Below are positions 28,936 through 50,929 of a stretch of 57,014 nt of DNA, piece by piece; within the stretch, counting starts at the first letter, position 1, and every line of letters begins with the position of its first letter. The DNA comes from Candidatus Nanoarchaeia archaeon. GTDB lineage: Archaea; Nanobdellota; Nanobdellia; Woesearchaeales; UBA12501. The translations under genes and the position numbers were made by a program. Where the stretch lies: the NCBI GenBank assembly GCA_035289005.1, contig DATDYN010000059.1, positions 1 through 57,014 of the forward strand. Direction: 5' to 3'. Below the pieces are notes generated by a model, which ran no database searches, was not told where the DNA came from, and worked only from the letters and a program-made list of their open reading frames with translations.

Positions 28936-29502
28936 TCAGGGGATCCTTCTGAGCCTGCGCAGCATGTAATTCTGCGACGCGTCATGCTCTGTTTTTCCGT
29001 CTCTGCTGTCACCGCTTATCGCTCCTAGAGATAACGGCTTCTGGTCAAGCACGACTGCCTGCGCTTTCTCTCTCTGGAAATCACCGATCTTCTTGCATTC
29101 CTCTTTAAGCTGCAACTCTGAAGTGTTCATCTCTTCCTCAGAGAGCTGTTTCGGCTGCCACTGGAAATTCAGGCCATCGCCTTCTCTCCTAGGGATAAGA
29201 TTGACCATGACATGCGCGGCTTCCTGGCCTGCGGCAATCCCGTTCGTTATGAGGACATTAGTGCCGTGGGCGCGCAGCCTGTCGAAAAGGACTGTGGATA
29301 TCTTATTCATTGCGGAAAACATTGAAGCGACAATGAAATCAGGCACTTGCTCAAAGATAGGATAATGATGTTTAGGCATCACAAGGATATGGCCGAGCGC
29401 GGCTGGAGCTGGCTCAAGGATAGCGACGCAATACTCATCTTCGTAAAGCTTGCGCACATTCTGCGCGCGTATCAGGTCGCAAAATACGCATCCTTCAGCC
29501 AT
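28936..29502 (-). CDS. HIT-superfamily-like protein with degenerate histidine triad (HVMVNLI)
   Basis: 188-aa ORF; CVFCDLI...VAILEPAPAALGHILVMPKHH N-terminal HIT fold motifs; the triad position reads AAHVMVNLIPR (29194-29214). Confidence 0.8.
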   Translation of the reverse strand: MAEGCVFCDLIRAQNVRKLYEDEYCVAILEPAPAALGHILVMPKHHYPIFEQVPDFIVASMFSAMNKISTVLFDRLRAHGTNVLITNGIAAGQEAAHVMVNLIPRREGDGLNFQWQPKQLSEEEMNTSELQLKEECKKIGDFQREKAQAVVLDQKPLSLGAISGDSRDGKTEHDASQNYMLRRLRRIP

Positions 29503-30535
29503 TGTCCCTCCCGAAAGGATTCACTCCGAACAATCCCGCGATCTTATCAAGGTCTGAAAGCTCTTTGCCAGTAGCGTCCTCATGCTCAGGCTCTTGTCCG
29601 GGACTGCCTTCTTCACTCTGAAGAGCATTCTGCGACGAGGATTTTCCAGAAGATTGCGGAACCTGCTGAGACCTAGAACCTTGCTCTGAGTCTCTCGCGC
29701 CTGAATTCTCTGTTCTTGACTTTGGTCTCGCTGATGAAGAGCCGCTGATCTTCTCCTCAAGCTTCCCTTCATCGGGCTTTTCCTCGGCATTGTCTGGCTG
29801 CTCTGTATTGATCTCATCAGAATCCTTACCAGAATCTTTATCTCTCCCCACCACAGAATCTTTATCGCTCTTCTTACTAGAATCCTTATCGCTTCCTTTA
29901 CTCATATCCTTATCTGATGCGGAATCTTTAGCTGCTCCATGTCCTTGTCCTGATTTCACTTCCTGCTCAGTCTGCCTGCTTTCAGGATTCTTCAAACCGA
30001 ACGCCGTATCTATCGCATCCTTGAGCGCGTCATCAACCTGCTTCAGCTGCTCAGGAGGTATCTGCTTATGGGGGGTCCTAAGGACTTCAACGCCGTCCTT
30101 CTCTTTCCTGGGGATGATATGGATCATGACATGAGGAGCGCGCTGTCCAGCGATTCCTCCATTCGCGATGAAAATACTGGTTCCTTCAGCCTTGAAGGCT
30201 CTCAGGCAGGCATGCGAGATCCCTTTAGTGACCATGGCGAGATGCCTGACAAGATCATCAGGAAGCTGAGGCATAACCATTACATGCTCTCTCGGAAGAA
30301 GGAGCACATGGCCGGGATTCGCGGGATTGATATCAAGCACAGCGACGCATTTATCGTCCTCAAATACTCTTTTAGCGGGGATCCTTCCAGTAATTATATG
30401 GCAGAATACGCAATTCTTCTTCTGGAGCTCAGCTATCTGCTCAGCAGACATATTCTGCAATTCAGCCTCTGTGAGTTCCGCCATCATCCCTCTTTTGGCA
30501 GCAGCGCTTGCATTTACGGCAGCCGCCTTATTCAA
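29495..30535 (-). CDS. HIT-superfamily-like protein with degenerate histidine triad (HVMIHII) and ~160-aa disordered Ser/Asp/Lys/Glu-rich tail
   Basis: 346-aa ORF; CVFCHIITGRIPAKRVFEDDKCVAVLDINPANPGHVLLLPREH; the triad position reads APHVMIHIIPR (30113-30133); 8-nt overlap with the downstream paralogue. Confidence 0.8.
   Translation of the reverse strand: MNKAAAVNASAAAKRGMMAELTEAELQNMSAEQIAELQKKNCVFCHIITGRIPAKRVFEDDKCVAVLDINPANPGHVLLLPREHVMVMPQLPDDLVRHLAMVTKGISHACLRAFKAEGTSIFIANGGIAGQRAPHVMIHIIPRKEKDGVEVLRTPHKQIPPEQLKQVDDALKDAIDTAFGLKNPESRQTEQEVKSGQGHGAAKDSASDKDMSKGSDKDSSKKSDKDSVVGRDKDSGKDSDEINTEQPDNAEEKPDEGKLEEKISGSSSARPKSRTENSGARDSEQGSRSQQVPQSSGKSSSQNALQSEEGSPGQEPEHEDATGKELSDLDKIAGLFGVNPFGRDNG
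29815..29935. repeat. Irregular short repeats (gaatcyttatc units) inside the HIT tail coding region
   Basis: Units at about 29820, 29832, 29856, 29880 and 29921 encode repeated DKDS/KDSD peptides. Confidence 0.5.
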
Positions 30536-30562
30536 ACAGACTTAAACTACTAGGGGGCAAGA

Positions 30563-30588: not shown

Positions 30589-30632
30589 GGCGATGTCCTG
30601 AATGCTTAATAAGAGGGATTCAGGACATCGCC
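30589..30632. promoter_or_regulatory. Perfect 15-bp inverted repeat (GGCGATGTCCTGAAT-N14-ATTCAGGACATCGCC) between the divergent HIT and giant-gene promoters
   Basis: Arms at 30589-30603 and 30618-30632; each arm ends about 14 nt from a flanking TATA box; the same 14-15-mer recurs at 110-123 and 23524-23538. Confidence 0.75.
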
Positions 30633-30726: not shown

Positions 30727-33700
30727 GTGCGAGGAAGCAGCTTGAAAGGGGCAAAAAGGGGAAGGGATACATTGAATAGTAGACATAAGCTTCTTGCAGC
30801 TCTCTTTCTTGCTATCATAAGCATGTCATTATTCTCTATATTCGCGCAGTCCGCGAACATAATGCTCGCTGAGCTGATAAGCAGCGAGAGCAATAAAGAA
30901 TCTGAGAACCCCGCCATAGCAATAGACAATATTGATCGTCTTCATATGGTATGGGAGGAGTCTGGAAGCACGTCCTCATCCCTGACAGGACAGCAAGGGC
31001 TGCCTGAGACAGGTCATGATAGCGACATATTCTACAAGTACAAGAAGAACAGCTCTCTGGCCGCGAAGACCTACTCAAGCACAGAAGGAAGGATTGTCGG
31101 AGGACTGCAGATAGTCAGCAATGACAGCGCGATGCAATCGCAACGCCCTGCAATCGCGACAGATTCAAGAGGGCTGGCGCACATCGTCTGGGAAGAGCTT
31201 GCGCAGCCTATTAAGATAATAGCTGACGCTAACACTACATTCTTAGTGAGATTTGACGGTTCCACTGACGCTAATTATTCCGCAGGGACAGACGTCCCAT
31301 CTGTCCAAGAGGATATCACTTTCAACAATGACGGAGCGATCAATAAGAGCGTGACGATCTCTACACTGACTGGAAGATTAGTGTATCCCGCGAGCGGCAA
31401 TGTGAATAACAACATAGGCACTGTGGAATTCTGGTTCAGGCCTGAATACACAAGCAAAGATCACGGGCTGCTCTCCTCGACAGTATTGTTCCAGCTATAC
31501 AACAGCGACACAGAAAAGATAACTGCCCGTCTGATCATCTCAAAGAATAGGTTCTACCTTAAGACATCGATAAACAATGACAACGACAATGGCTTGCTCT
31601 TCGCTCCTGCCGACAGATTCTTTCCCTGGAGCAAGAATGAATGGCACCATTTCGCGCTGACTTATGATTTTGACGCTAACAGGTACAAGATGTACGCCGA
31701 TGGGGACCTTATAGCGCAGAACCTGTCCGCGATATTCATCCAGCCAGCATTGAGCTCAGGAAATATAACTCTAGGAAATACTGTCGGAAGGAACGCCGGA
31801 ACTAAAACCACAATTGATGAATTCAGGATAATGAGCAATGTGCTTTCCGCCGCGGAGATAAAGGAAGACGCCTCTAACAGGAGTATACAGTACAAGAGAG
31901 TGAACATCAGTGATGACGAGAAAGGCCCTCAATGGTCAGCTCAGGAACAGGTCTCTCTCCCTTCAGACACTAATCTGTCTTATGCGCCAAGCATCGCTCT
32001 GGGAGCTGATAACTCGATATATGTGGTATGGAATAGCATGCATAATACCTCTTCCATGGATGTCCTTTACAGGCGCAAGAACACGACGTCCTGGTCGAAT
32101 ATAGAAGTCGTCTCAAATGTCAGCAAGATCGCTTTGATGCCTGATATCGCTGTCGACAATAGGAACGCGTCGCTTGTCGTCTGGCAGGATTTCACTAACG
32201 CATCATTGTCATTGAGTATGATCGTGTTCGCGAACAGGAGTTCGACAGGGGTGTGGAGCGATTATGAGAATGTAAGCAATGTCTCTCACGCGAGCGATGA
32301 TCCGGCTGATATCATCAATTGGGTGGAAGAGGCGCAAACAACAACTATATCAAAGCCGCGCATAATCCTTGACAATCAGAGCAGGGTGCATATCGCATGG
32401 TCAGACACCAATATCTATCCCAGAGACAACCTTATATTCTTTGCGCCGTATGATAGAGATTTCAACGCCACAATAGCTGGAGGGAATGGCACCGGATTCA
32501 TATCTTCAGGCACAACACCAGATATTCTCAGAGGAAGAAACGCGACGGAATATAACATCGTGAATTATGATTCGCTGAACGGCGCATTCATCAATGAGAC
32601 AGACTATCTCAATTATTCAAGCGCGGGAAATTTCAACGCGTCAATGGGAGCTATTGCTGCCTGGATAAAGCTTGACTGGAACGCTTCCATGTCATTGACT
32701 GACCTGAAAACCCACACGATACTAGCGGCACAGTCAGAAGATACCTCGATATCAGACAGCAATATATTTCAGTTCGGCATTATCGCGAATTCAGGCACGC
32801 TTTATCTCCTGATGCTGATAAGAGACAGTTCAGGCACTGCGTTCGCGGTGTCAGGAGGAAATTCAAACCTGTCTGAATGGAACTATAGAGAATGGCATCA
32901 TGTGGGAGCGTCCTGGAACGTCAACAATAGCTTAGGGCAGCGTGAGATTGACCTCTTTGTTGACGGAGTCGAAGTGACTAATGTGAGCATAACCCCTGAC
33001 AGCACTGCCCCTATAGATATCCTGCAACCGACAAGACTAATCATCGGCGCGGATTATGATAAGGATAACGAACTTTACCGTAATCAGCTGAATGGGACGA
33101 TCGATGACCTTATGATATTCAACACTACAATGGAGGCATGGCAGTTCAACGCATTGAAAGACCATCTTCCAGTGATATTGCATAGGCGGAAAGACAACAC
33201 AGGATGGTCCAGGGTCAATCTTGTGAGCAACCAGAGCAAATACGCGGCGCTTGTCCCGAATCTCGCAGAATCAGGGAATAGGATATACCTCACTTGGGCT
33301 GAAGAGTTCTCCCCTTACACGTTCAATAGCACGGATTACCGCTATGGGGGATTCTCAAAGATACAGTATGCTATCTACAACAAGACAAGCGCGAGAATCA
33401 CAAATCTAGGGACACTGAATGATGAAAGCCTGAAAGACGCCTCAAATCCTGACATCACTGCGAATGAGAGCAAGATCTATTTCATCTGGGAGGATGACAG
33501 CGAGATAATGGGCACTGACTCAGATATATACTTTAGGGAGATCACCAACACATCACTGCCATTGGTTGCTGTAGGATATCCTGCTGGGGGAGAGACATTC
33601 ACTGGAGATTTCATAGTTAACGCGACAGCGGCAGATGAGGATTCAACCATAAACAATCTGACTTTCTATTATACAGGGAATAACGGCCTCAATGGGGAAT

Positions 33701-36700
33701 TCATCTGCGATGACGCAACGAGCCCTTACTCATGCACGTGGAAGATAGCTTCAGTATCAGAAGATTATTATTCTGTCAAGGTCATCGCGAACAGCGATGA
33801 TGGAGGAAGAGGGACTAACATCAGCAAGCTTTCCTATATAGACAGCAATCCTAATGTGAGGTTATACAGGATCAATGAGTCAGGGAATACTCTTGGAAAC
33901 CACAAAGCATTCCAGAGAGGATATCTTGAGGCTAATGAGACCAAGGCGAACATAAGCTTGGGCACAGAGATGGGCTCTGAAGCCTCTCAGCAACAGCTTA
34001 CTGCTGCCTCATCCTCGGATGCAAATTACTGGAACACCTCCCTGAAACCTACATCTTGCCAAGGGCAGTTTTATTATTATAATAATCAGATCTTCAAGTT
34101 CATCATCAATGAGAGCGCTGATGATATCAGCAGCATGAAGATGAACTGGAGAGGGTACGGACAGATCAACGGCTTATTATCTGACATGAACACATCGATC
34201 TTCATCTGGAACAGCGCTTCAGGGATATGGGAGCTCATCTATGAGGAGCTGCCCACTGAAGTGAAAGACATAGCTGTCTCGCATACAATCTCCTCTAATT
34301 TCGGGAATTACCTCAACGGGACAGATAACGCGTTCTTCATACTCGCGCAGACAAGGGAATGGGCGCTCTGCATAGGAGGCGGTTGTCCAAGATATTCTTC
34401 CTGGAACAGCATCACTGGAAAATATGAATTTGAGAGCGATGGAATCATAGGCATGCTCAACAGCAAGATGAATAAGAAGACTTACGACAGGCTGGATATG
34501 CTCACTGCTTCACGGAAAGCTGTTGAAGAGCATGGGAAGAAGGATGACGCATCAGAAGAAAAAGAGGCCAATCCAGAGAATGACTCTGACAAGATAAGAA
34601 TAATGATAAGCGAGAACGCTCCTGAGACGGCGTTCATGGATTATTCCTCGCTGATCATCGCGACACATCCTGAAAGGACTCAAGTCCTGCTGGACAGCTC
34701 AGGAATCCCCCATACGATAAGAGAAGAGGATATACAGGGAGTTCAATGCAGAGATAAGGCAAGAAGAGACTGCACTGCGCTTGTGGCTTCAGCTGATGAC
34801 AGGCCAAGAATTGCGGCTCCATCCACTATGAATGGCCTTGCTGGCGGAAGATCCCCTGCAGACATCCATCATTCAGAGAAATCCTGGGTCAGCGATATCT
34901 CATCGATAGATCCTTGGAAGACGGCAAGCGAGGACAATGGTAAGAAGACATCAGAGGAAGAGGGTTCTTCAGTCGAAGATGATGGGCTTGAAGATTATAT
35001 AGAGATAACTCTTCCTGAGAATCGCAGAAACAGTAAGATGGCTAAACTCATCGTCAGCGCAAGCGAAACAGGATTCAAGAGCTTCGCTGAGAATGAGATC
35101 GCAGAGATATTGAAGAAAGTATTAGGATATGGCTCAATAGGGCTAGCTTATTCCCTGCAGGAAGAGGAGCCTTACGCAGGCATTGTCCGCAGTCAGGTGC
35201 GGCGGTCAAACATGATGAGCATAAAGATGAAAGACGAGGAAGAAAGATGGATGCCTTATCCCGGGCTTGAAGAGGGAGCGAGCGATTACAAGACTATGGT
35301 CTTCCCGATAAACCTTTCTTTGCTAAATGATGATAGGCTAAGGATACAGACTGGAACATTGACTCATTATATCGATCATGTAGGGATAGATTACGCGCCT
35401 GATGAAGAAGTGACTCTGAAGACCGTACAACCAAGACAGCAGGAACTTTCAGAGATGGATGACAGGAAAGAGATCATCATAAGCTATCCTGACAGCATCG
35501 GGCTGGTCTTCGATCCGCCACAGGTTCTGGATGAGGAAAGAAGCAAATCAAGAACTTACTTCCTTGCCACAGCCGGATATTATCATCCCGGAGAACTGGA
35601 AAGCCAGACTGATAATGATGAGAATCTGATATCAAAATCTGTGGCCAGAGCCAAAGCTCTTGCCGCGCTGCTCAAGAACAATCTTTCCCGCAGGATGATA
35701 CTTGAGGATTCTTTCGGAGAACGCTACCTGCTTGACAGGTATATCCATCTGAAGAATGCAAGCTTCAATATGTCGTCAAATCCTGAGAATGCGAGAATGA
35801 ATACGATGTACACGAACATGATCAGCGTTGTCGTGTCGACATGCACTATACCTTTTGACGGCATGACAATCGCGCAGAATACCTCGTTATGCCCAGGGAT
35901 ATACAACATACCTAATGATGATCCGATAAATAATCCTGCGGTCGTGAGGATAACAGGCAAGACCGGCCTGAGGCTCAACTGCAATGGAGCAACGCTAATC
36001 GGAGGATGCACAGAACCTGAGAAAGGGCAATGCGCAGGCAGCGGAGTGGGAATAGGCATCAACTATTCTACTGATATAGAGGTCACGAACTGTAATATAA
36101 CTGGATATGAGATCGCGATAGGCGCAAACGCCTCTTCAGGGATAATGATAAAAGACAGCGAAGTCAGAGGCAATTATGTCGGGATAGGATTTGAGGGGAC
36201 AAACTCGAGCACTGTCAGGAACAATACGATAAGCGAGAGCGGATATGTGGGGTTCGGAGGGGTTCTCTACAATTACAATGATATCGTTATCAATAATTCT
36301 TTCTTCAAGAATTTCGTCGCCATAGGGATAAGCAACACCTATTCAAGCGCTTTCGAGAACAATTATATCAACCAATCCTGCGACAGGATCTCTAGCGGAG
36401 ACTATGCCTGCTCAAGGTCAACAATAGTGCCAGTAGGCGCGATAGCTGTGCAGAAGAATTCTAATGGGAATACGATAAAGAACAACACGATATTCGGAGG
36501 CCTGCTAGGCATAGGCCTTGTAGACGCTTCGATAATCATCCCAGGGAGCGAAAGCCTTCCTTCGGGAATCGACAACAATTTCAGCAGGAATGCTGTCAAT
36601 GGCACAGCGCTGTTCGGGATAGGGATATTGAGCGCATACAACCAGGATTACTATAACTATTTCGGACAGGACAATACGGTGAATGGGGAGATCACCCATT

Positions 36701-39700
36701 ATTATTACAACACGCACGGCACAAGCGCCTCTTACACCAACATATGGAACCTGACGCTCACAGGCAAGACAAATGAGGGCGACGGCACAGGGTACTTCAT
36801 AGGAAAAGTGACCATAGTGAATTCAAGCTTCATCAATGTAGGGAATAACACTCTCGCGAATAATTTCTATGGGGTGCTGATAATAAACTCAAGCAATATC
36901 ACCGTATGGGGCAATAAGCTGCAGAATAACAGCGCGGTCATCGCTCCTTCATTCGGTGGAGCTGGATTATTCGTGATGGACTCGCGGAAGATAGACATAT
37001 TCAATAATAATGCCTCGCTGAACATGATGGGATATTACCTTAAAGACTCGACACTGGTCAATCTGACGAACAATACTGCCATCCTGAACAAATACCGGGA
37101 AGATGTTGATATTGACAACTTATGGAATTACGGCCAGGGATTCCGAGCTTCGAATGTCAATGACTCTTACTTCCTGAACAATACCGCTGATTCCAACAAC
37201 GCTTCAGGGATGCTTTTCACTGATGGAAGCAATACCAGCGTTAATGGGAACACCGCATTGAGGAATCTTTACGGGATACAGCTTGACTCTTCCAATGTGA
37301 CGTTGATATCGAACACGATGACTGAAAATACGATGGCTGGACTTATGCTGAAGAACACTGAGAATAATACTTACAGCGATGATTATGGGAACGTGATATT
37401 CAACAACACAGGGGCGGGAGTGCTGTTCTTCTCAGCGGCCAATTCCAACATCTCCTCATTGATCTCTTATAACAACAGCATAGGATTCCATTACTATGAC
37501 AGCATAGGACTCATATCCTACAACCTCAACGCGAGCCGTAACGCTTTCGGCTATCTCTTCAATACCTCTTATGACAATAAAGTGCTGCAGTCAACAGTGA
37601 TAAACAGCACAGAGGCGGATTTCTACTTCAGCACAGCGATGAACAACACGATCATAGATTCGTACACCATAAATAATGGGACTGGCAATGCGACTTTCTC
37701 AAGGGACGCCTCAAGCAATACCCTGCTCAATGTCACTTTCAACAAATCCTCTTATGGGTTCGAGGACGATGATTCTAACCTCACTGTAAGATGGCATCTT
37801 GATTTCCTTGTGCAGGACAATGAGAGCGTGCTTTACGGGATGAATATCCCCATCTCAGGAGTCAACATAAGCGTAGTCAGTGCTCTAGGAGTAGCAGAAT
37901 CCACGTTCACCGACGCTTATGGTTATGCCTTCCTCAACGCGACTGATTATGTGCAGAACAAGAGCGCGAAGCAGAACATGAACAATTATACCTGGAATGT
38001 CTCAAAATCAGGTTACAACTTCACAGGAAATCTTGCTTCTCCCTATGTTGTCAGTGCAAATATGACAATAAACCGAGCCTTCAATCTCAGCATGCTGCTC
38101 GCGGGAGGGGTAGAGGATGTTGATCCACCTACAGCCCCTATAGTTGTTGATGGTCCCAATTATGTCGATCTTGATTGGACAAGCAACAGGACAGCGCTGA
38201 CAGCTTCCTGGTACAATTCCACTGACAGGAGCCTGATATTCTATTCTTACAGGATATTTGACAATGGGACATGCCTCACAGGATACTGTGGAGAGACGAG
38301 CGCTTCGCAGAGCACGCAAGTGACCGTAGGAGGCCTCACGCTGCAGGAAGGCCACAACTACACTTTCGCTGTGCGCGCAAGAGACACGAAATATTTCTTC
38401 TCCCCTTACACATTCTCAGATGGGATAACAGCGGATTTTACTGCCCCTAATGTCACAGTGAACAGCTCGACGCACCCGAATGAATCGCAATGGTACTCCA
38501 ATAACAATGTCACCCTGATATTTTCCGCCACGGACGCACTGTCTGGAGTGGAGACATTCAGCTATCTGCTTGACGCGAGCAACGGCACAGGGCCTGATTT
38601 TGTCGCTGAGACTGTCGCCCCTCAATCATTGAAGACGATGAAGAACACAGGAGACAAGATAACCCTTAAGACGAACGGCACAGGGACTGCGCGAGCGATA
38701 TTCATAAGATTGATAAATAATCTTACTGTCGGAGATGTGTTGTCGCTCTCTTTCGCGGCCACTGAAGACACGCAGGATACTACTGACAAGATGACTGTGC
38801 TCGCTTACGCGATTCCCGGAACCACGACATTGGCTTCAGTGGATCATTCAAGCCAGGCGATAAGCCAGATAACGAACATGACAGCAGACATCACAAGCAG
38901 GGCTTACAGGACAGCGGACACTTACACCGCAGATATAACAATCACTACAGCGCTCAACGGCTCATTCTATGTCGTGCTCGCGGGATCAAGCGTTGATGAT
39001 GATAACACCTATAATCTCTCGCTCGCCGCGTCAACGACAGATCTGGATACAAGCGTCGAGAAGACAATGTGCATAGAATCAGGAGGGTGCAGCAATATAA
39101 CCTCGACAAGAGATGTCGCTGTATCGATCAACCTGAAGAGCAACGCAAGCACACGCACAAAGACCTATACGAATCTCGCTGATGGCGAACACTGGTTCCA
39201 TGCGCGCGCGCAGGACAAGGCAGGCAATTGGGGAGAGCCGCGGCATTTCAGATTAGGGATAGACGCGGTCAATGGAACCCCAATATTCACACTGGTAAGG
39301 CCTAGAGGGTTCATAGCGACAACCTCCCCGACATTGACAGCGGTATTGAGCGAACGGACAACTTGCTATGCTAACACGACAAACGCCTCAGGAGTGAGGA
39401 TGACCTCTTTTGACGGATTGAGGCATGAGCTTGATCTCTCCCTTTCTGAAGGCACGCACACTTACGGATTCAACTGCACTGACACTGCAGGCAACAGGGT
39501 GTTCAATACAACGACATTCACGATAAACCGCACAGTGATTCCTGATACTATAACCATAAGCGCGATAGGGATAGTGCCTGCGCTCTCAGCAGTCAGCGCA
39601 ACGATAAACGCATCAAGAGTGTTCGAAGGGTCAGGATACGGAGTCGGAGAGCTCGCGAAGAGCTTCACTTTCAACATCACTAATTCCAGTTCAGTCACCA

Positions 39701-41648: not shown

Positions 41649-41990
41649 TTGTCAGAGAGAAAAAGAGGTGTATTATTGAGCGGTAAAGAGCTGCTTCCTA
41701 TAGAGAGGGAGATAATCGAGCTTGAGCTTGAGAAATCACGCATTGACAGGGAGAAATCGATGCTTGTCCTCAATAAAGGGCTGTTCTTATACTTCTGCTT
41801 CCTTTTCGTCGCGGTGATAGGTTTCGTGAACGGGTTCATCAGCAAAGACCTTCTCAATATCCTCATAATCATGAGCTTATGCGTGATAGTTATCGCCACT
41901 CTGCCTTATATCAGGATAATGCACCGTGAAGAGCGCAAGCTTGTCAATCTCATAGAGCATCTGAAGGCGAAAAAGAGGGGAATGGTATGA
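41649..41990 (+). CDS. Small two-TM membrane protein with N-terminal charged helix
   Basis: 113-aa ORF (TTG start in the track; alternative TTG 41676 lies 6 nt after GAGGTG); TM helices LFLYFCFLFVAVIGFVNGF and ILIIMSLCVIVIATL. Confidence 0.5.
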   Translation: MSERKRGVLLSGKELLPIEREIIELELEKSRIDREKSMLVLNKGLFLYFCFLFVAVIGFVNGFISKDLLNILIIMSLCVIVIATLPYIRIMHREERKLVNLIEHLKAKKRGMV

Positions 41991-42586
41991 AGAGCGCAAA
42001 AATAGCGGGCAGAAAAAACTGCGGCAGATCAGGAACGGATCATCATTCCCAACCCATATTCTCAGTCAGGATACCACGGATAGGCATACTTCCAGCAGGC
42101 AAGAGAGGGGTTTCTCCGCTCATCGCCACAGTGCTGCTCATAGCTTTCGCGGTCGCTCTAGGCGCGGTAGTCATGAACTGGGGAAGAGGATATGTCGAAG
42201 AGACCCAGGATTTCGCGAGCCAGACCTCAAGGAGAGAGATCAAATGCAGCATTGACATAACCATGGAGATAATCAAGATAGGGGGCAGGAAACAGATATG
42301 CCTTGACAACCAGACGAACACTGTCAATTTCACGCTGCAGAACAGCGGGCCTGTCGATATCAAAGGGATACGTATCCAGGCGCTCAGCAATTCATCATCG
42401 ATAGTCAGCAATGAGCTTAATGAGACTTTCGAGACCGCAGTCCCCAAGAGGAGATACATAAATTATTCCTACACAGGAAATGGCAGTGTCTCGCAGGTCA
42501 GATTCACCCCATTGATAGAGATTGAAGAGAAGAAATCATGGTGTGCGCAGAACGTCCTGAAAGTAGAGGACATATCGATCTGTTAG
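41987..42586 (+). CDS. Archaeal type IV pilin (class III signal peptide, pilin N-terminal helix)
   Basis: GKRG/VSPLIATVLLIAFAVALGAVV is the canonical archaeal prepilin/flagellin-like N-terminal motif; unusually long ~40-aa leader; C-terminal Cys-framed domain with VNFTLQNSGPVDIKGIRI; ATGA overlap with the upstream gene. Confidence 0.85.
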   Translation: MKSAKIAGRKNCGRSGTDHHSQPIFSVRIPRIGILPAGKRGVSPLIATVLLIAFAVALGAVVMNWGRGYVEETQDFASQTSRREIKCSIDITMEIIKIGGRKQICLDNQTNTVNFTLQNSGPVDIKGIRIQALSNSSSIVSNELNETFETAVPKRRYINYSYTGNGSVSQVRFTPLIEIEEKKSWCAQNVLKVEDISIC

Positions 42587-42598: not shown

Positions 42599-43030
42599 AT
42601 GGCTGAGCAGCACAGGAAAGTCACGCTTTATCTTTTCCTTCTTGCAGTCTTCCTTTTCCTTGTCGTGATAATAGTCACAAGAGGATATAAGGAGACCAAA
42701 GCGAGCACTGAATACTCGAATGCGACCACAAAATCTGTGCTCCAATGCAATTTCTTCTCGTTCTCAGTATCAAAAATGAGTTACGGCAGCGGGACGCTGC
42801 AGCTATCGATCAGCATAAGAGTGACAGACGAGAGCACCGCCCCTAAGAATTTCGTGATAAAGACCAGTGACCAGCAGCGGCGCATAAATATCCCTTATTA
42901 CCTGGATTTCACAGCCCCAGTGAAGATAGAGGATTTCATAATCGATGACAGGTTCACAATATATCCTGAAGATTGCCCACAGAACAGGAAAGAATGCGAT
43001 ATACAGCAGAAGAGCTGCGTTGTAGCATAA
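42599..43030 (+). CDS. Pilin-like small protein
   Basis: 143-aa ORF; MAEQHRKVTLYLFLLAVFLFLVVIIV N-terminal anchor; Cys-framed C-terminal domain (QCNFFSF...EDCPQNRKECDIQQKSC). Confidence 0.5.
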   Translation: MAEQHRKVTLYLFLLAVFLFLVVIIVTRGYKETKASTEYSNATTKSVLQCNFFSFSVSKMSYGSGTLQLSISIRVTDESTAPKNFVIKTSDQQRRINIPYYLDFTAPVKIEDFIIDDRFTIYPEDCPQNRKECDIQQKSCVVA

Positions 43031-43075: not shown

Positions 43076-43783
43076 ATGCTGAATATAATTCCGCAAGGGA
43101 AGAAAGCCCAGATCTGGGAGTCCGCTATACTCTACCTGCTTATAATCTCAGTAGTCATCGCGATAGTGCTTGAAGCCGGAGTGCCTATGATGGACAATCT
43201 CAGGGATAAGTCAGTAGTCATGCAGATCAGGGACAGCTTCATCAATCTTGACCAGCACATAAGGGAGATCAGCACAGCTGGGCCTGGCTCCCAGAGAGTC
43301 GTGCCTTTAGAGACGAAGAAAGGGACTCTTAAGGTCGATGACGGAAGGATATTGTGGAGCATGGACACTGAAGCGCAGATAATGCAGCCAGGGACAAGTC
43401 AGAAGTTCGGGAACATAAGGGTAGGAGTCAACGCTGACGTCAAGGCTTCAGAGACTTCCAACAGGTTCATCATCAGCAACAGCTTTGTGAGAGGGGTATT
43501 CAACAAGATAGGGAATTCATCGCATTATGTGCCGATAAACTCTTCATCGCTGATAAACCATCTCCAGTCTTTAGATACCGGAGCGACTGTGAACGGCACC
43601 TGGTCTTTCGAGATCGATGACGCTGAGATAGAAGGCAATGGCTATACTGCAATGCTTGACAAAGGCAATGACCTGCAGGAAGGGAGAGTGCTCTATCATC
43701 TCAATCTTAGCTCTGGGACAGAGCATGATCTCACGCTGATCCTGAGAGCCAACAGTGATTTCTTCATCGTGGAGATGAGGTGA
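43076..43783 (+). CDS. Pilin-like protein (largest of the set, 235 aa)
   Basis: GKKA/QIWESAILYLLIISVVIAIVLEAGV: basic residues, small residue, then Gln and a hydrophobic helix; AAGGTGA SD upstream. Confidence 0.6.
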   Translation: MLNIIPQGKKAQIWESAILYLLIISVVIAIVLEAGVPMMDNLRDKSVVMQIRDSFINLDQHIREISTAGPGSQRVVPLETKKGTLKVDDGRILWSMDTEAQIMQPGTSQKFGNIRVGVNADVKASETSNRFIISNSFVRGVFNKIGNSSHYVPINSSSLINHLQSLDTGATVNGTWSFEIDDAEIEGNGYTAMLDKGNDLQEGRVLYHLNLSSGTEHDLTLILRANSDFFIVEMR

Positions 43784-44904: not shown

Positions 44905-44945
44905 GGATTTAAACCCAATCTACATTTAAATATTTCGTTCATATG

Positions 44946-45180: not shown

Positions 45181-45192
45181 CATTTATAAAGG
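45181..45192 (+). promoter_or_regulatory. TATA box upstream of the RHH/pilus-ATPase operon
   Basis: CATTTATAAAGG; followed immediately by two AGTTACTT units; the ATG of the RHH gene is about 110 nt downstream. Confidence 0.45.
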
Positions 45193-45194
45193 AA

Positions 45195-45226
45195 AGTTAC
45201 TTCTAGTGCAGTAATAGTTACTTTAG
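45195..45226 (+). promoter_or_regulatory. Two direct AGTTACTT-N-TAG units overlapping the predicted transcription start
   Basis: AGTTACTTCTAGT at 45195-45207 and AGTTACTTTAG at 45216-45226, 21 nt apart (about two helical turns). Confidence 0.5.
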
Positions 45227-45301
45227 GTTACCTTACCGGGAGTAGAGAACGGCATTAATGGATCATAATACGATCACAAACAAGCGAAGGTCTGACAACT
45301 C

Positions 45302-45544
45302 ATGGCTGTAATCAAGATCGACGACGAGCTGTACGAGAAGATAAAGAAGCTCATAAAGGAAGGAGATAACCGCTTCGATTATCCGACAGTCAAGGCCTTT
45401 GTCGACAAGGCGGTGTTCGCCGCTCTGAAAAACAATCCTGAAGAGCATCAGGCAGCAGAACAGCAGCAGGCAACAGGACAGAAACAACCTGCAGGACAGA
45501 GACCGCAATCAAGGCAGAAGAACGCCAAAGGCGGTGATCGCTGA
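45302..45544 (+). CDS. Ribbon-helix-helix (CopG-like) small protein with Gln-rich tail (tentative)
   Basis: 80-aa ORF; MAVIKIDDELYEKIKKLIKEG...YPTVKAFVDKAVFAALK fits a strand-helix-helix pattern; its stop overlaps the ATG of the ATPase gene. Confidence 0.55.
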   Translation: MAVIKIDDELYEKIKKLIKEGDNRFDYPTVKAFVDKAVFAALKNNPEEHQAAEQQQATGQKQPAGQRPQSRQKNAKGGDR

Positions 45545-47232
45545 TGGCTTTTGAGAATTTCTTGGGAAGGATGAAGCGCGGAGTCAGATGGTTCGTCAGC
45601 GGCGAGCCTAAAGAGGAGAAAAGCATCCAGGAGCTTCTCGCTGATACGAAATCAGAGATCCCTGAATCTGAGAAGAAGAAAGTGATCTTCGCGCTTGACG
45701 CTAAGCCCACGCTGCAGGAGCTGCCCTCTTCTGATGATCCAAGGCTGATAGATGTGAGATATCCTTTAGTGCCGCCTTACGCTTTCGCGCACATCTACTG
45801 GGACACAGAGATGAACGAGCTTGTCTACATGGTCGAAGAGCCGCCTCTGAATGACATTGAGCGCAACCTGCTGCAGCTCATACAGCTTGGATTGGAAGAG
45901 ATGATAAATGTCAGCTTCATAAAAGCGAAGAAATCCAATCTCGTCATGCAATATCTTGAGAGAAATGTTCAGGCGATACTTGTCGAGGTAGGGGCGAAAG
46001 TCTCCCAGGAATCCTACCTCAAGCTCCTGTACTACATCTACCGCGACGCGGTAGGCATGAATGAGATAGAGCCAATGCTCAGCGATTACTTCATAGAGGA
46101 TATAGAATGCAATGGGGAGGATTTCCCTATCTACATCGTTCACAGGAAATACCAGAACCTGAGGACTAATGTGATATTCACAGAGCTCAAACGCATCACA
46201 GACTTTGTCGAGAAGCTCGCGCAGAAATCAGGAAGATATGTCTCGTACGCCAGGCCTTTGCTTGACGGAACACTGCCTGACGGAAGCAGAGTCAATGCCA
46301 CTTACACAGGAGATATCACTACCAGAGGGCCGACTTTCACGATAAGGAAATTCACAAAAGAGCCCTGGACCCCAGTCCATCTCACACAGCTCAACACCGC
46401 GACAGCGGAACTGTTCGCTTTCCTCTGGCTCGCGATAGAGTACAAGTTCAACATAATGGTCATAGGAGAGACCGCTTCAGGAAAGACGACATTCCTCAAC
46501 ACATTATTGCAGTTCGTCCCTCCAGAAGCACGCGTCTGCTCGATAGAGGACACCAGAGAGATAAATATAGTGCATGACAACTGGCTGCCTGCTGTGACTC
46601 GTTCAGGATTCGGGATACCTAACCTGGCGGGAGTGCAGTACGGAGAGGTCAATCTCTTCGACCTGCTCAGGGAGACCTTCAGGCAGAATCCTGATTATGT
46701 GGTTGTGGGAGAGGTCAGGGGTAAAGAGACTTACGTCTTATTCCAGGGAATGGCTTCAGGGCATCCTTCATTCTCGACATTCCATGCCGGATCTGTAGAG
46801 ATGCTGACGAGAAGGCTTGAGACAGCTCCGATCTCATTGCCGCCGTCGCTAGTGGAATCTCTGGATATAGTATGCATAATCGGCCATGTCAAAGGAAAAT
46901 CCAAGAATCTCAGGAGAGTGACCGAGATAGACGAGATAATCCGAGTGAAACCAGGAGTCGGCCAGGTAGAGACTAACAAGATATTCACCTGGGATCCTGT
47001 GAATGACAGGATAACATTCAATGGGAAGTCATTCATATTCGAGAAGATACGCTCACGCACAGGGATCCCTGTGGAGACTATTGAGGAGGAGTTCAACGCG
47101 CGCACAGAATTCATCGAGATAATGGTGAAGAAAGACATAAAGGATCTCACGCAGTCAAGCGACCTGATACACAAGTACATGAAGAACCAGAACGCGCTCC
47201 CTAAGGATATGCAGGTAGGGAAGATAAAATGA
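45544..47232 (+). CDS. Type IV pilus / archaellum-type secretion ATPase (FlaI/PilB/TadA superfamily)
   Basis: 562-aa ORF; Walker A VIGETASGKTTFLNTLL, Walker B NPDYVVVGEVRG, His-box GMASGHPSFSTFHAGS, conserved RPLLDGTLPDGSRVNATY. Confidence 0.93.
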   Translation: MAFENFLGRMKRGVRWFVSGEPKEEKSIQELLADTKSEIPESEKKKVIFALDAKPTLQELPSSDDPRLIDVRYPLVPPYAFAHIYWDTEMNELVYMVEEPPLNDIERNLLQLIQLGLEEMINVSFIKAKKSNLVMQYLERNVQAILVEVGAKVSQESYLKLLYYIYRDAVGMNEIEPMLSDYFIEDIECNGEDFPIYIVHRKYQNLRTNVIFTELKRITDFVEKLAQKSGRYVSYARPLLDGTLPDGSRVNATYTGDITTRGPTFTIRKFTKEPWTPVHLTQLNTATAELFAFLWLAIEYKFNIMVIGETASGKTTFLNTLLQFVPPEARVCSIEDTREINIVHDNWLPAVTRSGFGIPNLAGVQYGEVNLFDLLRETFRQNPDYVVVGEVRGKETYVLFQGMASGHPSFSTFHAGSVEMLTRRLETAPISLPPSLVESLDIVCIIGHVKGKSKNLRRVTEIDEIIRVKPGVGQVETNKIFTWDPVNDRITFNGKSFIFEKIRSRTGIPVETIEEEFNARTEFIEIMVKKDIKDLTQSSDLIHKYMKNQNALPKDMQVGKIK

Positions 47233-47356: not shown

Positions 47357-47647
47357 ATGACGCTGCGCTACAGAAACACCCCCATGACGCAGAACATAAG
47401 CGAGGATCTCAGGCGCAATGTGAAGAAGATAGAAGCGCTAGCGGAGTTCTATGACGGCGTAAGCAGAAGGAATCCTGCTGGCGCCGGAGAACGCTCTGAG
47501 ATCCGGATAAAGAAAGAGTACGCCAGAGCTCAGATAAGGCAGCTATGCGCCAACACCCAGGAACTGCTGCATGAGATAGAAGTGAAACTTGTAGCGGAAG
47601 GGATGCAGAGCGAAGACATACTCGAGCTACAGGCAAAGACAGGATGA
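47357..47647 (+). CDS. Hypothetical small helical protein (96 aa)
   Basis: ORF between the ATPase and platform genes on the same strand; no family recognised. Confidence 0.45.
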   Translation: MTLRYRNTPMTQNISEDLRRNVKKIEALAEFYDGVSRRNPAGAGERSEIRIKKEYARAQIRQLCANTQELLHEIEVKLVAEGMQSEDILELQAKTG

Positions 47648-47755: not shown

Positions 47756-49972
47756 ATGAAAGACCATATAACCGCGATGACAGGGCAGGCGTTGCGCCTG
47801 ATCGAAGAGATAGAGACTTATGAGTTCCACAAGCACACTCTCCTGAACACCCTAAAAAGGCTGCATAAGGACTATGAAGGAGGGATATTCAACTATCATG
47901 ATTATGAGAGGCTTCTTGCTGAGACGCTCAAAGGCAGATCGCGCAGAGAATGGATAGGGCATTACAATTCGATAATATTCTCCCTGCTCCGCAGGATTGA
48001 GCCGATAATGGCGCAGGCTTCGATGCTCACAGCGAGAGACATCCCCCCTTCTGTCCTGACTTCTGAAGAGCTCGCGGCAAGACATATCATCTCAGTCAGT
48101 GAACTGAAGCGCGAATCGGCGAGAGAGGGAGTTCAGTCACAGAAAGCGCGGCAAGAGCTTAAGCTTCCAGAACAGCAGACGCCTCTGCCGATCGCGACAG
48201 CTGTCACTGAGAGAAGACAGACAAATCTGCCTGCGATCATGAAAGAAAGCCAGAGAATGCCGCAGAGGATCGCTGAAACGGCAGGCAAGCCTTCTGAAAG
48301 CATAGAACAAGGCTTCTCAGGATACAGGATGCAAGGATCTTCAAGGCAAGAACAAGCTCCTGAGCGGAAACCCATCATTAAGAATCATGATGAGACGCTC
48401 CAAGCGACAACCGCTCCTGAACAACCGGACAAAGAGCTTGACAGGCTCGTCGAAAACATCAGGAAGATAGACAAGGAAGCCCCGATACTCTCGCCAGTCA
48501 AAGAATCGACAACAACCAATTACCTGCTGATAAGATTCAAGCTAGGGCTTGTAAGGCTCCATACTCTCCTGAAAGAGAGACAGGCGAAGAAGATCGCGAA
48601 GACACAGACTCCTGAAGAGAAAGCCTGGCACAGGATGAAAGAGGCTGAAGAGAGCAAGAAGATCAAAGAGACTATGAAAGAGCTTTCAGTGACAGAGCAG
48701 AAAGAAGTCTCGCCGATACCGATGCCTTACACTGTGCCGAAAAAGATTGAAAGGCCTGCCGTCCGGATAGCTCCGCAAGAGAAAACGCGCAAACCTACCG
48801 ACATCCCTGAACCCAAGATAGAGCCTATAGTCGAGCGTACCAAAGAATTAGGGGAATTCACGCTCAGATGGGAATGGATAAAGAGATGGTACGCGCAGCA
48901 GGTGAAAGAGCAGAAGAAATTCCTCTCTCCGAAATCATCGATACCTCACTCGATGCAGGCTGAAGGGCTGAAGCACAAGATCCTTGAGGCGGCTGAAGAG
49001 AGCGAACCCAAATCCGCGAGACTGAAAGAAGAAGTCCTCAATATGCGCGCGCTTCTTGAAAAGCAGAAAGCTTTCAAGATATACGAGCCTTCATACCTCG
49101 GAGTGCTAGCTAACGTGCTGATAAGGAAATTCACTTTCATGCTTATAGATATGTTCCCTACGTTCTTCAAAGGGCTTTATGACTCTCTCAGGCTCGCGAA
49201 CATGCCAATACTGTCCAACACTTATGTGAACATAATGATCCTCAGCTCCGCGTTCACGGCATTGCTGGCGTCAGTGCTCTTCGGGCTGTTCTTCCTAGCC
49301 ACTGATAACCCTCTCGCTCTGCTCGTGCCAAAAACACTCTTCATGGCGCTCGTACTGGGCGGCATAGTGTTCATGATATTCACGATGTATCCTAAGATGA
49401 AGGCGCAGAGCAGGCAGACTGACATAAACACGAATCTTCCTTTCGCGATAAATCACTTTTCAGCAGTCTCAGGATCAGGCGTCCCCCCTACAAAGATGTT
49501 CACGCTGCTTGTGGAATCCGGAGAATACGGCGAGATAGGGATCGAGTTCAGCAAGGTTGTGGAATATGTAGAGCTGTTCGGCTATGACTTGCTCACTTCG
49601 ATAAGGACAGTGGCGCTCACAACCCCTTCAGCGATGCTGAAAGAGTTCCTTGAAGGAGTGATCTCGACAATAGAATCAGGAGGGGACATAAAAGATTACC
49701 TCAGGGAGAAAGCTGACAGCGCAATGCTGAACTACGAGCTTGAGCGCCAGAAATACCTTGAGAACATAGCCACTTATTCAGACGTCTATACAGGGATACT
49801 CATCGCCGCGCCGTTGTTCTTCATAGTGGCTCTCTCGCTTGTGAGCATGCTTGGAGGGACTATAGGCGGAATGGATGTCAATACGTTGATACTCATCGGA
49901 GGATACTTCGTGATCCCTCTGCTGAATGTCGCGTTCCTGATATTCCTTGAAGCGACACAGCCATCGCTCTAA
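47756..49972 (+). CDS. Pilus platform protein with one T2SSF (FlaJ/TadC-type) domain and a ~430-aa charged cytoplasmic N-terminal extension
   Basis: 738-aa ORF; T2SSF block NLPFAINHFSAVSGSGVPPTKMFTLLVESGEYGEIGIEFSKVVEYVELFGYDLLTSIRTVAL...ESGGDIKDYL flanked by TM helices; GGAGA SD. Confidence 0.85.
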   Translation: MKDHITAMTGQALRLIEEIETYEFHKHTLLNTLKRLHKDYEGGIFNYHDYERLLAETLKGRSRREWIGHYNSIIFSLLRRIEPIMAQASMLTARDIPPSVLTSEELAARHIISVSELKRESAREGVQSQKARQELKLPEQQTPLPIATAVTERRQTNLPAIMKESQRMPQRIAETAGKPSESIEQGFSGYRMQGSSRQEQAPERKPIIKNHDETLQATTAPEQPDKELDRLVENIRKIDKEAPILSPVKESTTTNYLLIRFKLGLVRLHTLLKERQAKKIAKTQTPEEKAWHRMKEAEESKKIKETMKELSVTEQKEVSPIPMPYTVPKKIERPAVRIAPQEKTRKPTDIPEPKIEPIVERTKELGEFTLRWEWIKRWYAQQVKEQKKFLSPKSSIPHSMQAEGLKHKILEAAEESEPKSARLKEEVLNMRALLEKQKAFKIYEPSYLGVLANVLIRKFTFMLIDMFPTFFKGLYDSLRLANMPILSNTYVNIMILSSAFTALLASVLFGLFFLATDNPLALLVPKTLFMALVLGGIVFMIFTMYPKMKAQSRQTDINTNLPFAINHFSAVSGSGVPPTKMFTLLVESGEYGEIGIEFSKVVEYVELFGYDLLTSIRTVALTTPSAMLKEFLEGVISTIESGGDIKDYLREKADSAMLNYELERQKYLENIATYSDVYTGILIAAPLFFIVALSLVSMLGGTIGGMDVNTLILIGGYFVIPLLNVAFLIFLEATQPSL

Positions 49973-50020
49973 GCAGGATATTGCACTAAAAGGATATAAG
50001 ATGGAGGGAAGAAGAAAACA

Positions 50021-50929
50021 ATGAAATTCGAGAAAAGGCACGCGACTGCGATTGTCATCGGAATAGTCATACTCCTCATAGACCTTTTCTTCTTCATAGG
50101 GACGCCCTGGCTCATACCACTCATAGCTGTCGCCATCACATTCGGATGGAGCCAGTTCTGGATCGATTTCTTCGTAAATCTCCAAAGGCAGAAGAACATG
50201 GAAGCGAGATTCCCTGACTTCGTCAGATACCTTGTCGGAGCGATAAGGTCAGGGATGCCTGTGTCGAAAGCGATAATACATGTTGCCAGCACTGATTTCG
50301 GAGACCTCTCGCCGTATGTCAGGAAACTCGCCAACCAGGTGGAATGGTCTATCCCGGTGCATAAGGCGCTCAAGACTTTCGCGAAAGACACTGACAACGC
50401 TGTGATAAAGCGGGCTATCGCGACAGTCATAGAAGCGGAGCAGGCGGGAGGGAACATCGAGGATGTCCTTGAGAGCGTGACACAGTCAGTCATAGACATA
50501 AAGAAGATCAGAGAGCGGCGCAGGGCAAGCATCCATTCGCAGACAGTGCAGAGCTATGTCATATTCATCGTGTTCCTGATAATCATGGTAGTAGTGCAGA
50601 ATCTCGTGACTCCTTACGTATCGAACATAACAGGGAGCGCTGTCGATCAGTTCGGAGGGGAGCAGGAAAGCATAATCCGGCCTGTCAGCGGAGGGCTGAA
50701 CGAGAAAGTGTCTATCGATTTCTCCTCAGCTAGCACTTTCGCCAAGACACTGAGCGAATGGTTCATGAGCCTCAGAGGGGTGCTGCTGATGATAGGATTA
50801 TTGCAGGGATTGTTCACAGGGATGGTGATAGGCAAGCTCGCTGAAGGCCAGATCTATCCAGGACTGAAGCACTCGCTCATACTGATGACTATGGCTTTTT
50901 TCGTGATCACTCTCTCGCAAGGGATATGA
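50021..50929 (+). CDS. Second pilus platform protein with one T2SSF (TadB/TadC-type) domain
   Basis: 302-aa ORF; RFPDFVRYLVGAIRSGMPVSKAIIHVASTDFGDLSPYVRKLANQVEWSIPVHKALKTFA...EQAGGNIEDVL plus N- and C-terminal TM helices. Confidence 0.85.
   Translation: MKFEKRHATAIVIGIVILLIDLFFFIGTPWLIPLIAVAITFGWSQFWIDFFVNLQRQKNMEARFPDFVRYLVGAIRSGMPVSKAIIHVASTDFGDLSPYVRKLANQVEWSIPVHKALKTFAKDTDNAVIKRAIATVIEAEQAGGNIEDVLESVTQSVIDIKKIRERRRASIHSQTVQSYVIFIVFLIIMVVVQNLVTPYVSNITGSAVDQFGGEQESIIRPVSGGLNEKVSIDFSSASTFAKTLSEWFMSLRGVLLMIGLLQGLFTGMVIGKLAEGQIYPGLKHSLILMTMAFFVITLSQGI

Follow-up and report, generated by a model that had tools for sequence, protein, structure and literature searches.

Among described systems, the archaeal type IV pilus (T4P) loci surveyed by Makarova, Koonin and Albers in 2016 (PMC4858521) include examples in which two TadC genes and five or more minor pilins accompany large PilY-like adhesins of the LamG type (DUF2341). 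In the clade 1 loci of that survey, the large LamG-type (DUF2341) proteins were proposed to sit at the pilus tip, by analogy to PilY1; a two-gene tadC-like platform was recorded in many clade 1 and clade 2 loci, and S-layer-like proteins were frequent extra components. For the DPANN archaea, Makarova et al. 2019 (PMC6393860, Fig. 2A) present a pilus 'dark-matter island' that comprises an ATPase (printed 'FliI'), TadC, TadB, and surface proteins, along with signal-peptide proteins that lack annotation. Golyshina et al. (PMC5498576) link LamG genes to T4P loci in Micrarchaeon Mia14, and, according to Hamm et al. 2024 (PMC11291902), two T4P loci are conserved throughout cluster 2 DPANN, Woesearchaeota included. 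The genes flaI/flaJ/flaK have been listed in Woesearchaeota (Liu et al., PMC5994134), and a preprint (10.1101/2020.05.14.094862) states that T4P components are missing from DPANN genomes. Here we describe a predicted T4P gene cluster, headed by the gene of a giant secreted protein, on contig DATDYN010000059.1 (assembly GCA_035289005.1) of a Candidatus Nanoarchaeia archaeon of the Woesearchaeales; the whole stretch analyzed, 57,014 nucleotides, is called the window below.

Woesearchaeota are among the most widespread uncultured archaea and are presumed to be host-dependent; no attachment apparatus has so far been tied to genes in the order. The window and ten related contigs share what appears to be a fixed, vertically inherited pilus operon, headed by the giant protein with its conserved tail and exchangeable head. 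The core of the finding, at 30.7-43.8 kb and 45.5-50.9 kb, can be assigned with reasonable confidence, as far as sequence comparison goes, to a vertically inherited T4P gene cluster of Woesearchaeota-type DPANN. The cluster belongs to an already described kind and is not a new system. The first-pass annotation, which knew of no described system with this composition, went too far in this respect, given the kindred loci of PMC4858521, PMC6393860, PMC11291902, and PMC5498576. In the searchable part of the literature on archaeal and DPANN T4P, no fixed giant-first layout with a conserved tail is described, and neither is the family of the small protein s3 or that of a ~75-aa protein, both of which are encoded in the cluster.

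Gene order shared with related contigs

Relatives of the locus were collected with four queries (ATPase homologues, a conserved stretch of the giant protein, s3 homologues, and HIT2, a histidine triad protein encoded upstream), and every window protein was compared with the relative loci by tblastn. A common gene order was found in 10 independent relatives on Woesearchaeota/Nanoarchaeota contigs (loci L001/2/16, L003/4/13, L012, L014, L015, L019, L020, L022, L024, and L025, of which L019 sits on an 868-kb contig): a large or giant protein, 5-6 small genes, an ATPase, a gene of 64-76 aa, a long T2SSF gene (611-997 aa), and a T2SSF gene of ~300 aa. The orthology between the window and the relatives is one-to-one, with identities of 44-79% for s3, 33-65% for s4, 34-49% for s6, 60-70% for the ATPase, and 51-69% for the second platform protein F2; the giant protein is 33-42% identical over its full length to its nearest relatives. 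The junction between the protein that carries the C-terminal module of the giant and the first small gene is kept in 10/10 relatives and persists where replacement has changed the N-terminal domains and the gene upstream. The gap at this junction is 92 bp in the window and runs from an overlap up to about 70 bp in the relatives. On the other hand, the interval between s6 and the ATPase is only 23-280 bp in the relatives, whereas the window has a 1.5-kb insert there.

Since ten independent relatives keep the order, the core from the giant gene to F2 is taken as one conserved unit. Co-occurrence of the giant, pilin, and ATPase genes, the synteny check suggested earlier, was seen from the ATPase side in 6/6 look-ups and from the giant side in 5/5 loci. 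As far as conservation goes, the claim of a single unit is supported for the giant gene together with the small pilin-like genes, the ATPase, and both T2SSF genes, but not for two HIT-like genes and a ribbon-helix-helix (RHH)-like gene that had been counted in and that lie outside the unit. The earlier doubt that the giant open reading frame (ORF) might be an assembly chimera could also be settled: independent assemblies contain orthologues that are 33-37% identical and colinear over the full length, and a 100%-identical database entry, 3182 aa long because it starts 5 codons downstream of GTG 30727, lies on a 47-kb contig, so a chimera is rejected. The proposed host, a small-genome archaeon, agrees with the DPANN labels of the homologues. 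Two record titles look wrong: L013 (CAYNHV010000011.1) is titled 'uncultured Methanosarcinales archaeon' and L025 (JAAGZO010000262.1) 'bacterium', and both carry a Woesearchaeota-type cluster with a 60-70% identical ATPase.

Components of the cluster and their likeness to described pili

The giant protein (30727..40290, plus strand) has 3187 aa when read from GTG 30727, and the earlier description of a giant lectin/beta-helix surface protein is borne out by its Sec-type N-terminus and its LamG, beta-helix, and Ig domains. Pfam matches comprise Laminin_G_3 (two stretches), NosD/Beta_helix, Big_7, and Big_13, with a weaker match to Invasin_D3 under the Pfam cut-off. From the N-terminus, the layout is a Sec-type signal, propeller-like repeats, two LamG domains, Big_7, a charged middle part, NosD/beta-helix, and C-terminal Ig-like domains. 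The motif P-x-I-A-x-D...h-V-W occurs five times, and these copies read like blades of a beta-propeller. N-x-S/T sequons number 124 compared to 56 expected, an approximately twofold excess, and no C-terminal transmembrane (TM) segment or recognizable anchor was found. A further observation concerns positions 30790-30900, where the predicted signal-peptidase site is followed, in the window and in the orthologues L013, L015, and L016, by the short conserved motif [ML]L[AST]E[LIVT][IV]S, whose Glu keeps an almost fixed spacing from the cleavage site.

Conservation is uneven along the protein, at ~25-40% over the first 2400 residues and 45-60% over the last 750. More distant loci match only residues ~2457-3186, in every case at the C-terminus of the large protein encoded first in the cluster. 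The giant protein is modular, with a variable N-terminal part of ~2400 aa and a conserved C-terminal part of ~730 aa. In fact, the N-terminal domains differ by lineage: LamG/beta-helix in the window, PQQ_2/fn3/Glug in L022, SBBP/Big_3_3/LamG in L025, and WD40/DUF5122/LamG/beta-helix in L019, where the giant reaches 4846 aa. In L024, the C-terminal module is a separate secreted protein of 897 aa. A full HMMER scan with the C-terminal 787 aa returned 1340 representative proteins at E <=0.001; among the best 150 of the 1340, many exceed 1000 aa (maximum 5817), and the match is often at or near the C-terminus. A full-length search of a 5.8-billion-protein index returned only the protein itself, the word index probably being swamped by the N/S/T-rich composition, and a PDB sequence search gave no match.

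Downstream of the giant gene lie six small genes, all on the plus strand, which had been described as carrying pilin-type N-termini. A single N-terminal hydrophobic segment of this type is present in five of them, namely, s1, s2, s4, s5, and s6, but not in s3, which has two TM helices. The Shine-Dalgarno (SD) sites and overlaps noted earlier were confirmed: GGAGG-type SD sites precede s1, s2, s4, s6, and the platform genes F1 and F2, and there is an ATGA overlap between s3 and s4 and a TGATG overlap between the RHH-like gene and the ATPase. The basic/small-residue/hydrophobic N-termini of s1, s2, s4, and s6 are conserved across orthologues.

Among the small proteins, s4 (41987..42586) is the only one to score above the cut-off of a curated pilin model (TIGR02537, 28.5 bits; cut-off 20); it also matches a UpsA-like model at E 9e-7. 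The orthologue alignment shows an almost invariant mature N-terminus, VSPLIATVLLIAFAVALGAVVMNWGRGYV, and four conserved cysteines. By homology, s4 is an archaeal type IV pilin, and it is the best candidate for the major filament subunit. The s2 protein (40974..41504), with the motif K[KR][GA]-[IV][ST]PWIS, aligns with s4 over its full length in hhalign (probability 98.8%, E 1e-16) and is a paralogue of s4. In s1 (40383..40913) and s6 (43076..43783), a conserved [KR]K[SAG]-Q precedes the hydrophobic helix and places Q at the predicted +1 position (s1 [KR]K[SA]-Q; s6 KK[ASG]-Q). The fuller motifs are [KR]K[SA]-Q-[LF]Y in s1 and KK[ASG]-[QD]IW in s6, the latter protein also having a conserved GPGSQR. 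In contrast to s6, which is present in all full clusters, s5 (42599..43030), with an N-terminal hydrophobic segment and conserved cysteines, is absent from some relatives; the residue at its predicted -1 position is atypical, and its assignment as a pilin is doubtful. No homology of s1, s5, or s6 to s4 was detectable beyond the N-terminus. Taken together, s1, s2, s6, and perhaps s5 are predicted to be minor pilins.

Because of its two TM helices (residues 46-64 and 70-88, after an N-terminal charged helix), s3 (41649..41990) is not a pilin; it is the best conserved of the small genes. Its start codon is uncertain, and the database entry has 104 aa. All 42 homologues detected are unnamed or 'hypothetical', those with a label belong to Woesearchaeota/Nanoarchaeota, and there is no Pfam match. 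Pairs of s3 and s4 also occur as mini-loci without giant, ATPase, or platform genes (L021 6995-10912; L023 334-1150), and an s4-like gene stands alone in L005 (9412-9930). The s3 protein may therefore serve specifically as a partner of s4. The L021 mini-locus adjoins a HIT pair and lies two genes from a Peptidase_A24 gene.

The ATPase (45544..47232, plus strand) matches T2SSE at E 7e-30, and the Walker A motif GETASGKTT and DYVVVGE (Walker B) can be read in its sequence. Together with two T2SSF matches, this confirms the FlaI/PilB-type ATPase and the two platform proteins of the first-pass annotation. Residues 67-556 align with AfGspE (2OAP) at 380 bits (E 1e-112), compared to 270 bits (E 2e-79) for FlaI and 141 bits (E 3e-40) for CpaF. 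The NCBIfam FlaI model gives 403 bits, under its cut-off of 550, and a TadA-family model gives 146 bits against a cut-off of 373. A homologue search at E up to 1e-10 gave 7841 proteins; identity is 60-70% for every one of the best 120, and the named ones come almost entirely from metagenome-assembled genomes of Woesearchaeota/Nanoarchaeota. The relatives' ATPases carry a PilB3_C domain. By these scores, the enzyme is an archaeal pilus ATPase and neither an archaellum motor nor a bacterial Tad enzyme. The label 'Epd/Tad-like' given to the machine is therefore apt in a broad sense only.

Between the ATPase and the platform genes, at a conserved position, lies a gene for a small soluble protein (47357..47647, plus strand; 96 aa in the window, 64-76 aa in relatives). 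It is 33% identical to the relatives' ~75-aa protein and has no match in family-model scans. The platform proteins F1 (47756..49972; T2SSF E 2e-13, with TM segments) and F2 (50021..50929; T2SSF E 1e-16), both on the plus strand, match positions 4-248 of 555 and 195-380 of 465 in FlaJ models, respectively. Since they align to the N- and C-terminal halves of FlaJ, the platform is split over two genes, both FlaJ/TadC-like. F1 has a charged N-terminal extension of ~480 aa that varies in length, with the first ~130 aa conserved.

Of the marks of an archaeal T4P, an ATPase of the PilB/FlaI/GspE group, a T2SSF platform, and class III-type pilins (s4 and s2) are present, and a dedicated A24 prepilin peptidase was not found among the window ORFs scanned. 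Compared to the euryarchaeal clade 2 PilA-type T4P (Haloferax volcanii PilB3/PilC3 and PilA; Archaeoglobus GspE, 2OAP), the window ATPase is closest to AfGspE among solved structures, s4 shares the KRGVSPLIATVLLIA-type N-terminus and passes TIGR02537, and, as in the window, a pair of tadC-like genes and additional surface proteins are found in many loci of clade 2 (PMC4858521). Unlike these loci, the window fixes pilins, a two-TM protein, a ~75-aa protein, and a protein of 3-5 thousand residues in an operon-like order; its F1 carries the ~480-aa extension, and s1, s3, s5, s6, and the ~75-aa protein match no described family. The clade 1/Epd pili of Methanococcus maripaludis are similar in their two TadC-like genes, at least five pilin-like genes, and large LamG-type proteins (PMC4858521). 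The Epd combination of two TadC-like genes with pilin-like proteins that have Q at +1 recurs here in F1/F2, s1, and s6. Glutamine at +1 is a hallmark of EppA substrates. On the other hand, the window has no short (~70 aa) stand-alone major pilin, EppA, or FleN/MinD gene, and DUF2341 was not detected in its giant protein, the LamG matches being Laminin_G_3. Among the characterized ATPases compared (AfGspE, FlaI, and CpaF), AfGspE and FlaI are nearest to that of the window.

PilY1 and MshQ of bacterial type IVa and MSHA pili are large Sec-exported proteins with beta-propeller and/or LamG-type domains, share an operon with several minor pilins, and are thought to sit at the pilus tip. The likeness to the window, a large protein encoded beside minor pilins, is one of inference (PMC4858521 for the analogy); no sequence homology was detected (no PilY1/DUF2341, no PDB match), the window giant is three to four times larger, and the archaeal machine has no secretin. 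The cluster 2 DPANN loci belong to the same lineage group, with Woesearchaeota named, and they share with the window an ATPase, a TadC/TadB-type platform, PilA-like pilins, unannotated signal-peptide proteins, and 'specific surface proteins' (PMC11291902, PMC6393860, PMC5498576). The descriptions differ in that they stress coiled-coil proteins or only sketch the loci, and no giant fixed in first place with a conserved C-terminal module appears in the portions available. The bacterial Tad/Flp pilus (CpaF/TadA, TadB, TadC) likewise has two single-T2SSF platform proteins and a distantly related ATPase (CpaF, 141 bits), but the window ATPase is much closer to archaeal enzymes and F1/F2 align to the FlaJ halves; no Flp-type short pilin, RcpA-type secretin, or TadZ was found for the window cluster. 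An archaellum was considered and rejected: the ATPase score lies under the FlaI cut-off, and the cluster has no FlaH, FlaF, FlaG, or archaellin family match.

Proposed mechanism and rival explanations

By homology, the FlaI/GspE-type ATPase and the two-gene platform F1/F2 form the assembly motor of an archaeal T4P, and at least two of the small proteins are true pilins. In the mechanism proposed here, s4 would polymerize into the filament. The minor pilins s1, s2, s6, and perhaps s5, processed by a prepilin peptidase encoded outside the window, may prime or cap the filament, and s3 and the ~75-aa protein may be lineage-specific accessory parts of the machine. The giant protein would be exported by the Sec pathway and N-glycosylated; its conserved C-terminal ~730 residues would dock it onto the pilus, at a tip complex of minor pilins, or onto the cell envelope, and its fast-evolving N-terminal LamG/propeller-like/beta-helix region may bind host-cell or surface glycans, analogous to PilY1 or MshQ with minor pilins. 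We consider it rather probable, on homology and gene order, that the operon is a pilus-plus-adhesin unit, and the cluster makes a sound candidate for an apparatus of attachment to hosts or surfaces. That the giant protein is physically mounted on the filament is a much more tentative suggestion. Equally speculative is the extended proposal, in which a pilus-displayed adhesin with a swappable head, docked via the C-terminal ~730-residue module and s1/s2/s6, might set host range in Woesearchaeales.

If such a swappable head is indeed mounted, the cluster would offer the first molecular handle on how an abundant uncultured DPANN order finds and holds its hosts, and s3, the ~75-aa protein, and the C-terminal module would become three uncharacterised families named as parts of an archaeal pilus machine. 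The fixed operon with its conserved tail and exchangeable head provides concrete targets, namely, the s4 pilin, the C-terminal module, and s3 as a marker. The general picture of type IV pili is unchanged, LamG adhesins in archaeal pilus loci and DPANN pilus loci having already been published.

Several results weigh against the pilus-plus-adhesin reading. The s1, s5, and s6 proteins match no pilin family model, and the single-sequence structure models of s6 (predicted local distance difference test score 41) and s1 (44) are unreliable, showing only a long N-terminal helix followed by strands. A Pfam scan of 46 window ORFs turned up no A24 prepilin peptidase (PibD/FlaK/EppA); the Peptidase_A24 gene near the s3-s4 pair in the relative L021 suggests that the peptidase is probably encoded elsewhere in the window's genome. 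Neither the PilY1 beta-propeller (Neisseria_PilC) nor DUF2341 was detected in the giant protein (Pfam, E up to 0.01), and generic Ig-like repeats, which give many-stretch matches, supply part of its C-terminal conservation signal. In addition, L021 and L023 have s3 and s4 but not the remainder of the cluster, and the flanking housekeeping genes are likewise syntenic, so conservation of order alone overstates functional coupling. Finally, the 1.5-kb insert means that co-transcription of the two cluster halves is not required.

The same facts bear on the rival explanations. The giant protein might be an S-layer-like or free-standing surface fiber off the pilus, which neighbors the pilus genes through a shared surface role and co-regulation. 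S-layer-like proteins are frequent extras in archaeal T4P loci (PMC4858521), and this reading agrees with the Sec-type rather than class III signal of the giant, with its lack of a detectable PilY1 or DUF2341 domain, and with the synteny of the surrounding backbone. It accounts less well for the junction with the first small gene, kept with an overlap or a 1-70 bp gap in all ten relatives, or for a fiber protein without a C-terminal TM segment or other recognizable membrane anchor, and we regard it as unlikely. The cluster might instead be a secretion device, in which a pseudopilus of s1-s6 pushes the folded giant protein through the envelope in a manner resembling type II secretion. Pseudopili of type II secretion systems are built by the same superfamily, several minor-pilin-like genes accompany one clear major-type pilin, and a cargo-sized protein is encoded first. 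However, archaea lack an outer membrane and a secretin, none is encoded in the window by Pfam, and the nearly invariant hydrophobic N-terminus of s4 is typical of filament-forming PilA-type pilins. To our knowledge, there is no archaeal precedent for pseudopilus secretion of a giant protein, and this explanation is improbable.

A wider reading, close to that of the first-pass annotation, makes the whole 22-kb block one attachment island under an inverted repeat, including the pair of HIT-like genes (HIT1, 28936-29502, and HIT2, 29495-30535, both on the minus strand) and the RHH-like gene. The HIT pair indeed adjoins pilus genes divergently in three lineages, being divergent from the giant gene in the window, from an s4-like pilin in L005-L007, and from the s3-s4 pair in L021, and the inverted CCTGAAT core of the repeat recurs, in degenerate form, between HIT and s3 in L021, where CCTGAAT-N16-TTTCAGG encloses an A/T-rich box. 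In L012, L013, L015, and L016, however, no HIT gene was present in the 2.3-2.8 kb read upstream of the giant gene, where a geranylgeranyl reductase/polyprenyl synthase fusion, rubrerythrin, or unknown genes are found instead. The repeat arm lies near other window promoters and is absent from the 23 relative loci searched, including upstream of the giant orthologues; the RHH-like gene and a 247-aa ORF have no homologue in any relative by tblastn; and nothing ties the HIT family to pili, both proteins in any case lacking the central triad histidine. The block shows no shift in GC content, and the backbone genes on either side of it are shared with L021. This wider reading is thus largely refuted for the HIT and RHH genes and, as a whole, highly improbable: both HIT genes are real (Pfam) but outside the unit, and we read the adjacency of HIT and pilin genes as a matter of conserved backbone in which the pilus cluster has long held its place, a functional link being less likely. 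The term 'island' was not borne out either, since relatives have the same backbone genes downstream (NFACT, Carb_kinase, Na/H exchanger); a horizontally acquired island is ruled out by the flat GC content and the backbone synteny.

Inverted repeat and neighboring genes

The perfect 15-bp inverted repeat reported between divergent promoters was confirmed in sequence (GGCGATGTCCTGAAT / ATTCAGGACATCGCC, 30589-30603 and 30618-30632, with a 14-nt A/T-containing spacer). It lies midway between the divergent promoters of HIT2 and the giant gene, with TATA-like boxes ~42 nt on either side, and, by an estimate rather than a computation, it is far beyond chance for a 190-bp spacer. At <=3 mismatches, the repeat arm has 11 matches in the window compared to 1.8 expected, a count reached by 0/100 shuffles. 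The dispersed motif has the consensus GGC[GT][AC]TG[TC]CCTGAAT and is found at 109-123, 6996-7010, 16167-16181, 23524-23538, 23547-23561, 23655-23669, and 30589-30632; the copies are mostly intergenic, several abut TATA-like boxes, and a second inverted pair occupies 23524-23561, in another divergent intergenic region. The core CCTGAAT occurs 25 times in the window, about twice the 11 expected. Because the arm is dispersed near other promoters, the repeat is not a locus-specific operator; judging from its placement, it appears to be a general promoter-proximal element of the organism, which could be either a transcription factor site or flanks resembling a B recognition element around a shared TATA box.

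The two HIT genes overlap by 8 nt. HIT1 matches Pfam HIT at E 3e-17 and is preceded by a GGGAGGG site; HIT2 matches at E 3e-21 and has a long acidic serine-rich tail. The triad motif reads HVMIHII in HIT2 and HVMVNLI in HIT1, departing from the catalytic H-x-H-x-H-x-x, and the central histidine position is occupied by Met in 3/3 HIT2 orthologues and by Met or Val in three HIT1 orthologues. This implies that both paralogues may be inactive or atypical. The HIT genes lie at 28936-30535 in the window, 9986-11349 in L005, and 8615-9891 in L021, and the HIT2 orthologues share a long acidic disordered tail with a conserved LDxI end. Upstream of the HIT pair, at 26089-28878, are two single-domain response regulators, a 184-aa KaiC-like/DUF7504 protein, and a 465-aa dCache protein; this signal-transduction cluster was not seen beside the pilus cluster in relatives.

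The 80-aa RHH-like gene (45302..45544, plus strand) is present as described and overlaps the ATPase start by 1 nt, but its name is less secure: the RHH_1 match (E 0.12) scores 12.8 bits against a cut-off of 20.5 and covers residues 4-21 only. A TATA-like TTTATAAA lies ~110 nt upstream. The gene may at most be a lineage-specific, local regulator of the ATPase and platform genes. Before it, between s6 and the ATPase, the lineage-specific 1.5-kb insert (43790-45300), which is missing from the first-pass annotation, contains two minus-strand ORFs, of 247 aa (43806-44549) and 65 aa (44521-44718), and ~580 bp of non-coding sequence. Neither ORF has a Pfam or PHROG match, no counterpart of the 65-aa ORF was seen in relatives, and an Rfam search of the non-coding stretch at 44.7-45.3 kb returned nothing. 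In the window's genome, the cluster would thus be divided by the insert into two or more transcription units. A hairpin, CCCAAyCrCAGCAAGCTGyGGG..., occurs three times (44800-44824, 44887-44911, and 25945-25960), with no Rfam match. The two copies at 44.8 kb differ by one base pair, changed on both sides, and the plus strand at 44740-44930 folds with z = -2.7; the element is possibly a small repeated RNA or similar to a repetitive extragenic palindrome.

As for the flanks, L021 shares the right flank of the window, Carb_kinase followed by an Na/H exchanger with TrkA_N, and NFACT stands directly after F2 in L003, L020, L022, and L024 and one gene further in L019. Elsewhere, the window holds housekeeping genes (PRPP synthase, SUF system, a cysteine desulfurase-type aminotransferase, a DRG-type GTPase, and NAD(P)HX dehydratase), and an RNA search of the whole window found tRNA-Ser only. 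A second large protein, of 1240 aa and with a PKD domain, is encoded 18 kb upstream, at 8744-12466 on the minus strand, and may be another surface protein of the organism.

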